DNA from: Escherichia coli
GTDB taxonomy: Bacteria > Pseudomonadota > Gammaproteobacteria > Enterobacterales > Enterobacteriaceae
Reading direction: 5' to 3' (one strand)
Length of the DNA stretch: 64,000 nucleotides
NCBI RefSeq assembly: GCF_003991155.1
Contig: NZ_CP031293.1
This document shows positions 2,631 to 3,941 of this stretch, in pieces (within the stretch, counting starts at the first letter, position 1; every line of letters begins with the position of its first letter). A program made the position numbers and the translations under genes. A model generated the notes under the pieces. The model ran no database searches, was not told the origin of the DNA, and saw only the letters and a list, made by a program, of their open reading frames with translations.

Positions 2631-2657
2631 AAGGGCCGCGAAAGCGGCCCTTTTTTT
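2631..2657. terminator. Intrinsic terminator hairpin shared by the convergent tktA and SPFH transcripts
   Basis: aagggccgcgaaagcggccc followed by ttttttt on the + strand; lies directly after the minus-strand SPFH stop codon (2656-2658). Confidence 0.6.
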
Positions 2658-3564
2658 ACTTAGTAGAGATAAACGGAACTGTGCTGCCGGGGATCATGGT
2701 ATCGGGCAGTTTACCGTCCCAACGCTCAGCAGTGGTGAGGGCAACAAGTCCGGGATTCTCCCGCAGAGCTTCACCGCGCAGGCGGATAGCTTCTGCTTCA
2801 GCCGCACTTTTTAAACGAATAGTTTCAGCCTCTGCCGCGCCTCTTACGCGAATAGTTTCCGCTTCTGCTTTGGCTGCCGCTAGTTTACTGTCTGCTTCCG
2901 CCTGGGCCTGAGTTACCGCTATTTGCGCCTGGATTTTCTCCGTTTCCAGATTTTGCTTACGCGTGGCAATGGCGACTTCTGCTTTCATTCGGTCTTCAAT
3001 CGACTTTTCATAAGCGTCAGAAAAATCAATATTTTCAATCTGGACCCCGTCAATTACCACTGGCCCAACAACGGCTTTGCGCATGGCATTTTGCAGATCC
3101 TGAACCAGTTTTGTGCGATCCTGTACGGCGCTGATGGCGGTATATTGTCCGAAAACGTTCTCCAGTTGAGTTGGCAACTGACGGACAATCAGACGATCTT
3201 TTAATGCTTCAATGGTGTTGTAGGTGGTATAAACCGCGCCTGCTTCTGAAGGTTTAATGTGGAAGCTGACTGATACTGTCATTTGTGCCGGTTGCTGGTC
3301 GCGGCTGTAGGCCTGTAATCCCTGATAGACCACAGCCTGATTACGCGTGGAAATTTTCTCTACGCTTTCCATAAAAGGGATCTTAAAACCCAGCCCCGGC
3401 TCGGCAACTTTTACGATTTTTCCGTAGCGCAGCAAAATGCCGCGTTCACCTTCATTAACGGTGTAATACGAGAGAAATGGCAGCACAACCACGGCAAGCA
3501 CGCCAATGGCGATAGCAAGAGATTTTTGTGGGCGAAATGAGGTTAATGAAACAGGTGCTTTCAT
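2656..3564 (-). CDS. SPFH / band-7 (prohibitin-like) family membrane protein, 302 aa
   Basis: ORF 2656..3564; N-terminal hydrophobic anchor, then a PHB-like domain (YTVNEGERGILLRYGKI...); C-terminal AEAE-type repeats. Confidence 0.8.
   Translation of the reverse strand: MKAPVSLTSFRPQKSLAIAIGVLAVVVLPFLSYYTVNEGERGILLRYGKIVKVAEPGLGFKIPFMESVEKISTRNQAVVYQGLQAYSRDQQPAQMTVSVSFHIKPSEAGAVYTTYNTIEALKDRLIVRQLPTQLENVFGQYTAISAVQDRTKLVQDLQNAMRKAVVGPVVIDGVQIENIDFSDAYEKSIEDRMKAEVAIATRKQNLETEKIQAQIAVTQAQAEADSKLAAAKAEAETIRVRGAAEAETIRLKSAAEAEAIRLRGEALRENPGLVALTTAERWDGKLPDTMIPGSTVPFISTK
2775..2880 (-). repeat. Three tandem ~33-bp repeats inside the SPFH gene
   Basis: Units gcaggcggatagcttctgcttcagccgcact / ttaaacgaatagtttcagcctctgccgcgcctc / ttacgcgaatagtttccgcttctgctttggctg encode AEAETIRVRGA / AEAETIRLKSA / AEAEAIRLRGE. 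Confidence 0.7.
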
Positions 3565-3941
3565 ATGAATCTTCCTTGAGTAAAGTATAGGAATATGTCA
3601 CATGGGGTGATGAGAAAACAGACAACAGCCGATAATTCAGAATTTATAAAGGGGATGAGCGAAAAAATAATAAACGTAATAAGTATGTTTTCGAACATTC
3701 AATAAGAAAATAGAGATGTGTATCACAAATATAGTGATGAATAATTTGTTGATTTTGTAGTTTACTTAACAGATTTATAATTGACTTTTTAAAAGCTTAT
3801 TTCATGTTGTTGTTATTTAATATTTTGTTATTTTTGCTCGTGGAGTTTCTCCTTTCATGTGTCCAATTGCTTTCGTTAATTTGTACGCGTATTTTATTTT
3901 TACCGCCGGACTGTACCCTAAAAATAAAATAAGGATAATTT

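Follow-up and report, generated by a model that had tools for sequence, protein, structure and literature searches.

A prohibitin-like SPFH gene between tkt and cmtB, present in a third of Escherichia coli genomes and absent from K-12

The cages formed by SPFH proteins have been described in terms of TM, SPFH1/2, CC1, CC2 and CT, and are of differing heights (bioRxiv 10.1101/2025.04.21.649849). The literature counts four SPFH proteins in E. coli (PMC6788730), the count being four because it is based on K-12. In QmcA-YbbJ and YqiK-YqiJ the SPFH gene shares an operon with an NfeD-family partner and the proteins are oriented towards the cytoplasm; the SPFH4 prokaryotic prohibitins rarely co-occur with HflK/C, and their bacterial members are described as an uncharacterised subfamily (Hinderhofer et al. 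2009, PMC2636767). A prophage-borne SPFH virulence factor has been reported in Pasteurella (PMC9872710); it is set beside the present gene by description only. The gene considered here is already annotated and intact, and searches of the literature by accession, by 'prohibitin family protein' and by SPFH with prophage or phage-encoded returned no study of it.

Here, I describe this gene in a 64,000-nucleotide stretch of E. coli DNA (the window). It is convergent with the 3' end of tkt (tktA; 150..1157, plus strand) and divergent from cmtB (3942..4385, plus strand). The features of the locus are:

2656..3564 (stop codon included), minus strand: coding sequence of the SPFH / 'prohibitin family' protein, 302 aa (open reading frame list, Pfam, RefSeq, dN/dS)
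3571..3577, minus strand: Shine-Dalgarno-like AAGGAAG, 6 nt before the ATG, read from the sequence
3565..3941, no strand: AT-rich spacer that separates the divergent SPFH gene and cmtB, 377 bp, 28-36% GC (composition, spacer alignments)
2631..2652, no strand: GC-rich hairpin 4 bp past the SPFH stop codon (terminator and repeat scans)
2582..2606, no strand: REP element GCCTGATAAGCGTAGCGCATCAGGC 3' of the SPFH gene, the IS621 insertion point (comparison with the uninterrupted haplotype L003)
~1292..2581, minus strand: IS621 copy (IS110 family) between tkt and the SPFH gene (open reading frames, haplotype comparison)

The REP element follows the stop codon at a distance of 50 bp and has IS621 inserted at its edge; the IS621 copy is separate from the SPFH gene and absent from most carriers, e.g. 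L003. The layout proposed in the earlier note, namely a gene convergent to tktA, divergent from cmtB across a 377-bp AT-rich spacer and followed by a REP serving as IS target, is therefore the one seen in the window. The T-run of the hairpin at 2631..2652 is on the plus strand, which makes this hairpin a candidate for terminating transcription in both directions, from tkt and from the convergent SPFH gene. It alone was noteworthy in a promoter and terminator scan whose counts were not above those of shuffles, and the consensus promoter match in the spacer (minus strand, 3694..3667) was no better than chance. A mirror copy of the hairpin occurs at 1178..1199, directly after tkt. A search of 1000..4500 against Rfam gave two sub-threshold REP-related matches near tkt and none in the SPFH gene or the spacer. 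The locus holds no NfeD partner, the neighbours in the window being tkt, IS621 and cmtB; likewise, the NfeD Pfam family is absent near relatives in 10 other chromosomal, prophage or ICE-like contexts, and no NfeD-type gene is annotated in two plasmid contexts of relatives.

In an identical genome, RefSeq annotates the product as WP_000646942.1, 'prohibitin family protein', and the prohibitin-like SPFH identity that had been proposed for it is upheld by a domain search, in which Pfam Band_7 (PF01145) matches aa 35-210 with E 5.6e-32 and 111.6 bits against a cut-off of 23.6. The parts of the protein are:

3469..3531, minus strand: N-terminal transmembrane helix, aa 12-32 (helix of the AF2 model and sequence alignment with the HflC membrane anchor)
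2935..3462, minus strand: SPFH/Band 7 domain, at aa 35-210 in Pfam and, as the globular part of the model, at aa 33-181 (Pfam, AF2, Foldseek)
2758..3018, minus strand: single long helix, aa 183-269, 87 residues (AF2 model, Foldseek alignment)
2659..2757, minus strand: conserved C-terminal module NPxLVxLTxAERWDGKLPxTMIPGxxVPFI, aa 270-302 (55-sequence alignment, PHROG 38808, Stx2-phage protein)

The AF2 model (pLDDT 83.5) places the membrane helix at aa 12-32, behind a K/R-rich N-terminus (K2, R11, K14), the SPFH domain at 33-181 and the long helix at 183-269; over aa 181-260 most pLDDT values are 78-95, falling to 64 for aa 261-270, and confidence is low in the last ~30 residues. An architecture of the cage type is thus present in the model, with N-terminal anchor, SPFH1/2, long CC1 helix and C-terminal cap segment, and the helix of aa 183-269 is, as modelled, the equivalent of the CC1 'wall' helix of SPFH cages. 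The harmonics of its hydrophobicity fall near 5.5 and 2.7 residues and so approximate 11/2 and 11/4, which points to an 11-residue periodicity; hydrophobic-moment analysis gave no clean heptad or hendecad peak (3.5 or 3.67). In the C-terminal module W282, G284, L286, P287, P292 and P297 are invariant across 55 sequences, and the match to PHROG 38808 together with an Stx2-phage protein indicates that the module is common to other phage SPFH proteins.

Searched against the PDB by Foldseek, the model aligns over ~300 columns each with HflC (7vhq_G, E 2e-17), PHB2/PHB1 (8rrh), erlin1/2, HflK, stomatin, QmcA and flotillin, with HflC, PHB2 and PHB1 ranking together. By sequence, HflC (2e-13) and HflK (1e-10) come above prohibitin (4e-5), and QmcA is also matched; the protein being nearer in sequence to HflC/HflK than to eukaryotic prohibitins, the label 'prohibitin' is a loose one. 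At the same time, its scores remain far below the NCBIfam equivalog cut-offs (59.9 vs 134.4 bits for HflC, 37.4 vs 159.4 bits for HflK), so that binding to FtsH is not to be assumed. On the whole, I infer that the gene likely encodes a functional single-pass inner-membrane SPFH scaffold of the partner-less 'p-prohibitin' type.

Relatives are abundant on mobile elements. The protein matches PHROG 200 (E 6e-63), and 288 phage records, including jumbo phages and the E. coli phage Skarpretter, hold relatives of 45-53% identity. Plasmids of Enterobacter and Kosakonia encode relatives of 71-74% (tblastn), and conjugative plasmids of Pseudomonas relatives of 58-59%; one relative sits inside an F-type tra operon, between traB and traV. 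A Salmonella prophage relative lies near an integrase and adjoins an Rrf2 regulator, a K. oxytoca relative also adjoins Rrf2, an HNH gene and an ArdC/methylase gene being located no more than a few kb away, and an SPFH protein at the int-xis end of an Stx2 phage has the same C-terminal module. Rrf2 was considered as part of a conserved partner module and rejected, as it accompanies only the Salmonella prophage and K. oxytoca relatives and is found neither on the plasmids, nor in Skarpretter, nor at the E. coli locus.

This distribution raises the question of whether the E. coli gene was domesticated from a mobile element and has its real role in the conflict between phage or plasmid and host; such a role could be superinfection exclusion, could protect the envelope while infection or conjugation is under way, or could tune FtsH and with it lysis-lysogeny decisions. 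The abundance of the family on phages, prophages and plasmids, in a tra operon included, speaks for it, as do the Salmonella prophage, K. oxytoca element and Stx2-phage relatives just described. However, the E. coli copy has no mobile-element neighbours other than the secondary IS621 insertion, its chromosomal position is conserved across genera (E. albertii, Kluyvera, the metagenomic relative P0029 and, in part, Klebsiella), and its GC content is normal (46-54% across the coding sequence). PADLOC returned 0 families at E <= 0.01 for the protein, and no link between the family and exclusion or defence was found within the literature collection searched. A conflict role is therefore regarded as improbable for the E. 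coli gene.

As for its distribution within the species, the gene is carried by 1818 of 5426 complete E. coli genomes (33.5%; 1830 matching records), the carriers sampled including Nissle 1917, LF82 and F11. K-12 is without it and has a tkt-cmtB spacer of 313 bp. Outside E. coli, the gene lies between tkt and cmtB in E. albertii, whereas in Kluyvera and in P0029 it is convergent to tkt and lies between tkt and epd-pgk-fbaA; on a short Klebsiella contig, which ends just past the gene, epd-pgk-fbaA is on one side of it. Two E. coli alleles differ by 21 synonymous and 2 non-synonymous substitutions, and dN/dS is 0.02-0.045 over all comparisons and 0.024-0.045 against E. albertii, Kluyvera and the metagenomic relative, a pattern that points to strong purifying selection. 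The dS to E. albertii, taken for this gene alone, is large (0.72), as would be expected of inheritance since the E. coli / E. albertii split.

The K-12 spacer bears on the direction of change. BLASTn (word size 7) and strict local alignment did not match the K-12-specific spacer to the carrier haplotype, and non-homologous replacement of the spacer was entertained; it was overturned by MAFFT and a permissive local alignment with shuffles, which show the K-12 spacer to be similar to that of carriers (z 8-11, 0/500 shuffles). In K-12 the cmtB-proximal ~275 bp of the carrier spacer correspond to a diverged sequence, with good conservation over the last 82 bp, and what is missing there is a ~1.2-kb stretch made up of the REP spacer, the coding sequence and ~100 bp of the 5' spacer. 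Because the K-12 spacer is thus what is left, in diverged form, of the carrier spacer, K-12-type strains probably lost the gene by a ~1.2-kb deletion. The same position across genera, together with strong purifying selection, likewise argues for an ancestral gene lost in K-12-type strains rather than an acquired islet; loss rather than gain is probable by parsimony from few outgroups.

The opposite reading, in which some E. coli lineages recently gained an islet between tkt and cmtB and K-12 preserves the ancestral empty site, would account for the patchy presence (33.5%), the AT-rich spacer and the REP and IS elements that adjoin the gene, and for the lack of similarity in the first BLAST comparison. 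Yet it is quite unlikely, for outgroups have the gene in place (E. albertii, Kluyvera and the metagenomic relative all carry it convergent to tkt, and the Klebsiella contig has the epd-side flank), the coding sequence has the composition given above, the dS to E. albertii is large, IS621 is missing from most carriers, L003 among them, and the K-12 spacer is a remnant by permissive alignment. The earlier note suggested, with reserve, that K-12 has no annotated gene at this position and that the gene may be accessory. The absence from K-12 is now established and, with a third of complete genomes carrying it, the gene is no ordinary member of the core genome; 'accessory' is apt for its patchiness within E. 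coli but not in the sense of acquired, its position by tkt in several genera being probably ancestral.

The long helix contains repeated units:

2770..2868, minus strand: three in-frame 33-bp units, aa 233-265 (hand definition and lag autocorrelation, cross-genus alignment)
2869..2901, minus strand: degenerate upstream unit AEADSKLAAAK, aa 222-232 (17/33 nt identical to units 1 and 3)

The three units read AEAETIRVRGA (2836-2868), AEAETIRLKSA (2803-2835) and AEAEAIRLRGE (2770-2802). They were delimited by hand and by lag autocorrelation, and a separate repeat search picked up the 33-bp spacing; self-identity of the region at lag 33 is 0.55, vs 0.28-0.37 at neighbouring lags. Pairwise nucleotide identities are 26/33, 22/33 and 19/33 (79, 67 and 58%), and the longest run common to the units, read by eye, is ~11 bp. 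The copies have diverged too far for Tandem Repeats Finder (minimum score 30) to report the array. The repeats that had been noticed by inspection are thus real, if diverged. In homologues from other genera two units are present in 16/16 aligned, seen as a clean 11-aa gap against Escherichia; that all are exactly one unit short argues that the repeat is not due to chance. From the alignment, the third unit is an 11-aa duplication of the Escherichia lineage, one of the first two units being the duplicate. As the units are only 58-79% identical and the three-unit state is common to E. albertii (dS 0.72), the duplication is old, predating the E. coli / E. albertii split, and fixed in E. coli.

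The same region had been called potentially length-variable, a suggestion that does not hold for E. coli. Full-length matches are exactly 909 bp in 59/59 cases (even-step sample of the 1830 matching records), and synthetic two-unit and four-unit alleles used as queries had only three-unit genomes as best matches, in two pieces with a record span of 363 bp and with no genome at 99% identity. That the array is a contingency segment altering the protein between strains is largely refuted for E. coli and very improbable: the three in-register units, the other-genus relatives one unit short and the 280-aa E. albertii allele P0014, from which the degenerate unit and unit 1 are missing (exactly two units, 22 aa), are in its favour, but units so far from near-identical, with so short a common run, a copy number constant in the E. 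coli sample and unmatched by either synthetic allele, and a three-unit state that extends to E. albertii at that dS all stand against it.

With the partner-less inner-membrane scaffold as the preferred reading, a mechanism may be outlined. By analogy with HflK/C, prohibitin, erlin, stomatin and QmcA, the protein would build a large membrane-bound ring or cage, probably facing the periplasm, to judge from the positive N-terminus and the alignment of helix and motif with HflC. The cage might enclose a membrane patch and clients, among them perhaps a membrane protease such as FtsH. An insertion of 11 residues corresponds to three helical turns (~16 A) and would lengthen the cage wall with the helix register unchanged; this would account for its being both tolerated and conserved. 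A more specific picture, of a fifth SPFH protein in carriers that forms a homo-oligomeric periplasm-facing cage of a phage- and plasmid-carried family, acts at the envelope (in phage/plasmid-host interplay or FtsH-dependent quality control) and is taller by the Escherichia-specific 11 residues, is speculative and doubtful as a whole.

SPFH or 'lipid-raft' work based on K-12 counts HflK, HflC, QmcA and YqiK, while a third of sequenced E. coli has a fifth protein, conserved and of the least-studied subfamily; deletion studies in K-12, which lacks the gene, therefore miss part of the SPFH set of carriers. The frequent carriage of the family by phages, prophages and conjugative plasmids is a testable lead on function, and the two-unit vs three-unit difference is a natural experiment on helix length as a determinant of cage geometry. 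In other respects the locus is unremarkable, the gene being annotated, inherited vertically and polymorphic for presence or absence.

Among known systems, the FtsH-modulating cage of HflC/HflK (7vhp, 7vhq, 7wi3, 9cz1) is the best match in sequence and fold. Membrane helix, SPFH domain, CC1 and C-terminal segment follow one another as they do there and the motif EGERG..LR.GK after the helix is in common, but the present protein is shorter and its gene is solitary between tkt and cmtB, not part of an hflK-hflC pair. QmcA-YbbJ and YqiK-YqiJ of E. coli K-12 are likewise inner-membrane SPFH scaffolds, the QmcA cage (8z5g) being a fold match; unlike them, the gene is solitary in every context examined. 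The SPFH proteins of phages and plasmids (PHROG 200, the 'band 7 protein' of Skarpretter, the jumbo-phage GAP32 homologue, and the 'prohibitin family protein' of pCAR1 and Enterobacter IncFII) have the same architecture at 45-74% identity, with 11-residue AEAxxIR units and an ERW(D/N)GxLP...PF C-terminus, and differ in being borne by mobile elements, with surroundings that vary. Two units, against three in Escherichia, are present in the relatives aligned, which came from plasmids, prophages and chromosomes. E. coli carriers of the gene also have hflKC, located outside the window, and in this they depart from the SPFH4 pattern, as does the PDB search, in which the protein is nearer to HflC/HflK than to PHB1/2. 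In size (~280-300 aa), N-terminal anchor, SPFH domain, coiled-coil, predicted periplasmic orientation and the lack of an NfeD partner, it resembles the SPFH4 p-prohibitins.

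In this E. coli window, the SPFH gene encodes a 302-residue protein and lies between tkt (tktA) and cmtB, being convergent with the former and divergent from the latter. The features of the interval are as follows.

150..1157, + strand: 3' end of the tkt (tktA) open reading frame
1178-1199 and 2631-2652: near-identical, mirror-image GC-rich hairpins (AAGGGCCGCnnnnGCGGCCCTT)
about 1292..2581, - strand (transposase ORF): complete copy of IS621, IS110 family, delimited by comparison with L003, a carrier haplotype without the insertion
1407..2387, - strand: IS110-family transposase ORF, 326 aa
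2656..3564, - strand: SPFH coding sequence, 302 aa, an ORF with ATG start
6 nt upstream of the SPFH ATG, - strand: Shine-Dalgarno sequence AAGGAAG, read from the sequence
2770-2802, - strand: repeat unit 3, aa 255-265, AEAEAIRLRGE
2803-2835, - strand: repeat unit 2, aa 244-254, AEAETIRLKSA
2836-2868, - strand: repeat unit 1, aa 233-243, AEAETIRVRGA
2869-2901, - strand: degenerate fourth unit preceding units 1-3, AEADSKLAAAK
3942..4385, + strand: cmtB, followed by cmtA and yggP, also on the + strand

Everything that the earlier note observed was found at the coordinates it gave. The GC content of the coding sequence is 46-54%, against 28-36% in the 377-bp spacer (3565..3941). A Band_7/SPFH domain spans residues 35-210 (Pfam, 111.6 bits, cut-off 23.6) and, together with fold and sequence matches in the PDB, upholds the prohibitin-like identity first assigned to the protein. 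The gene is itself uncharacterised; it belongs to a known family and already has a database annotation. A literature search for this E. coli gene retrieved no paper.

The suspicion that K-12 lacks the gene was correct: in the XL1-Blue record the tkt-cmtB spacer measures only 313 bp and is devoid of it. Carriers represent ~33.5% of complete E. coli genomes, including Nissle 1917, F11, LF82 and O145:H28 strains, and the gene is missing from O157:H7 and from K-12/B derivatives. The label "accessory" holds relative to K-12; it fails as a statement of origin, for the gene looks ancestral rather than acquired. E. albertii has it between tkt and cmtB, as in the window, and in Kluyvera intermedia and a further metagenomic relative it is convergent to tkt and adjoins epd-pgk-fbaA. 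A short contig of Klebsiella spallanzanii, which stops just beyond the gene, has the same epd-pgk-fbaA flank; in all three the cmt-ygg block is missing from that interval. Two E. coli alleles differ by 21 synonymous and 2 non-synonymous changes, and dN/dS to other genera is 0.024-0.045. Purifying selection on the gene is strong, and it was not imported recently.

A non-homologous K-12 spacer was entertained, as ~230 bp at first displayed no similarity to the carrier haplotype, and was overturned by permissive alignment. With MAFFT and permissive local alignment, ~120 bp of these K-12-specific ~230 bp align with the cmtB-proximal carrier spacer (z-scores 8-11; the observed score was reached by 0 of 500 shuffles), and conservation is good over the final 82 bp next to cmtB. 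The simplest history, by parsimony from a few outgroups, would be ancestral presence followed by loss of the REP spacer, the coding sequence and ~100 bp of 5' flank in the K-12-type lineage.

The spacer 3565-3941 is itself unusually divergent, so that the region upstream of cmtBA differs greatly between strains. Its SPFH-proximal 295 bp are only 77% identical between two E. coli carriers, despite 97.5% identity of their SPFH coding sequences; identity to E. albertii is 62-68%, and K-12 can be aligned only loosely (the window was compared with L003 3965-4341, L004 and L001). A TTGAC motif within it is conserved, and so are the 82 bp that immediately precede cmtB.

On the other side of the gene, the insertion sequence next to tkt is IS621, as annotated in near-identical genomes. 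IS621 is a bridge-RNA recombinase element. Comparison with the uninterrupted haplotype L003 bears out the earlier claim of a REP target 3' of the SPFH gene: its insertion point coincides exactly with the edge of a REP element (2582..2606, GCCTGATAAGCG...), 50 bp beyond the SPFH stop codon. E. coli BH100N matches the window fully in its SPFH gene and cmtB spacer and has IS1397 in the tkt-SPFH spacer in place of IS621 (L002 2543-3891), which makes the small REP cluster a recurrent target of two different REP-seeking IS elements. The non-coding 5' end of IS621 (about 2388-2581, - strand) gave no Rfam match. The two hairpins, part of a 38-nt inverted repeat (1178-1215 and 2615-2652, 79% complementary), stand just past the tkt and SPFH stops and flank the REP cluster on both sides; each has its T-run facing the gene of the other, as in a mirror-image pair of terminators. 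Two sub-threshold Rfam matches, naRNA4 (1175-1260, - strand, 32.2 bits vs 59.5) and ES036 (1264-1307, + strand, 35.5 vs 37.6), both REP-derived sRNA families, fall in the tkt-proximal REP cluster.

The three in-frame repeats of ~33 bp in the C-terminal part are genuine, chiefly on comparative evidence. Units 1 and 2 share 26/33 nucleotides, 1 and 3 22/33, and 2 and 3 19/33; self-identity of the region is 0.55 at lag 33 vs 0.28-0.37 at other lags. Tandem Repeats Finder did not call the 33-bp array, and a separate repeat search picked up its spacing. Of 20 aligned homologues, the 16 from outside Escherichia/Shigella (Kluyvera, Klebsiella, Kosakonia, Mixta, Erwinia, Salmonella, a Pasteurellaceae and Pseudomonas among them) all possess exactly two units, and a clean 11-residue gap separates them from the proteins of E. 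coli, Shigella and most E. albertii; the third unit is thus a tandem duplication of 11 aa (33 bp) peculiar to the Escherichia lineage.

The proposal that the segment might vary in length does not hold within E. coli. Of 5426 complete genomes, 1830 have a match to the coding sequence, which in 1818 covers at least 80% of it, and the span is exactly 909 bp in 59/59 full-length matches sampled at even steps of the ranking, down to 93.5% identity. Two-unit and four-unit synthetic alleles were built and searched; their best matches were ordinary three-unit genomes, in two pieces with a 363-bp record span, and none reached 99% identity to either allele. Rare length variants among more diverged E. 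coli alleles may amount to a few per cent at most. Since E. coli and E. albertii (dS ~0.7) both have the three units, which differ from one another by 21-42%, the duplication is old and a poor substrate for slippage. The 280-aa E. albertii protein P0014 lacks exactly 22 residues, namely unit 1 and the degenerate unit before it, in register; length variants are thus known within the genus. Small in-frame duplications elsewhere in the gene occur in single records, such as QGL in E. albertii P0006, and one Shigella record has a 7-aa insert outside the array.

Mobile elements commonly carry more distant members of the family (45-74% identity). PHROG 200 is matched with an E-value of 6e-63. There are also matches in 288 phage records, jumbo phages and E. 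coli phage Skarpretter among them, and copies on conjugative plasmids of Enterobacter, Kosakonia and Pseudomonas. On the Enterobacter hormaechei IncFII plasmid pMS7884B (L022 3405-4289), the F-type conjugative transfer operon contains, between traB and traV, a homologue with 73% identity (tblastn). Copies in a Salmonella prophage (L014 5001-6263), near the integrase, and in an ICE-like element of K. oxytoca (L011 4475-5903) directly adjoin a small Rrf2-family regulator, the two elements being unrelated; neither the plasmids nor Skarpretter nor the E. coli locus showed such a pair. Because relatives so frequently travel on phages, prophages and conjugative plasmids, a role of the chromosomal gene in phage/plasmid-host interplay is a live, albeit minority, hypothesis; none of the PADLOC models covers the family. 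A 275-aa SPFH protein of an Stx2d phage (L021 1871-2698) and a P1-like phage (L020 1871-2698), sometimes annotated "serine protease", is ~50% identical to the E. coli protein over the latter's last 65 residues, and much less so in the SPFH domain. The common region comprises the repeat units and an ERW(D/N)GxLP...PF tail; PHROG 38808 (68 aa) matches this tail alone, which may be an exchangeable oligomerisation module.

An AlphaFold2 model from a 55-sequence alignment (mean pLDDT 83.5) has a membrane helix (12-32), a globular SPFH domain (33-181), an uninterrupted helix (183-269) holding the repeats, and a low-confidence C-terminus. Solved relatives are all domed rings or cages, with SPFH domains on the membrane, a wall made of the long helix CC1 and a C-terminal cap, and cage height varies from family to family (bioRxiv 10.1101/2025.04.21.649849). 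By analogy, the protein would form such a membrane ring or cage. The repeats fall in the CC1-equivalent helix; as eleven residues make three helical turns (~16 Å), the duplication would lengthen the wall and leave neighbouring helices in register. In the hydrophobicity spectrum there are peaks near 5.5 and 2.7 residues, roughly where a period of 11 residues has its 11/2 and 11/4 harmonics, and there is no clean 3.5 or 3.67 peak. The positively charged N-terminus, along with the alignment of the anchor and of the EGERG..LR.GK motif with HflC, suggests that the N-terminus is inside and that the protein faces the periplasm; any connection with FtsH or some other client is speculation by analogy.

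Among known systems, Foldseek matches in the PDB over ~300 aligned columns comprise HflC (7vhq_G, E 2e-17), human PHB2/PHB1 and erlin1/2, as well as HflK, stomatin, QmcA and flotillin; by sequence, HflC (2e-13) and HflK rank above QmcA and prohibitin. The protein is not HflK/C, for it falls far below the NCBIfam equivalog cut-offs of both and is encoded by a single gene. No NfeD-family neighbour occurs in any context examined, be it the window or the chromosomal, prophage, ICE-like and plasmid loci of relatives. SPFH proteins of E. coli have been counted as four, on the basis of K-12 (PMC6788730). The features of the protein fit the partner-less "p-prohibitin" subfamily SPFH4, in which its membership is plausible; bacterial SPFH4 proteins are described as uncharacterised, probably periplasm-facing and rarely co-occurring with HflK/C (Hinderhofer et al., PMC2636767).
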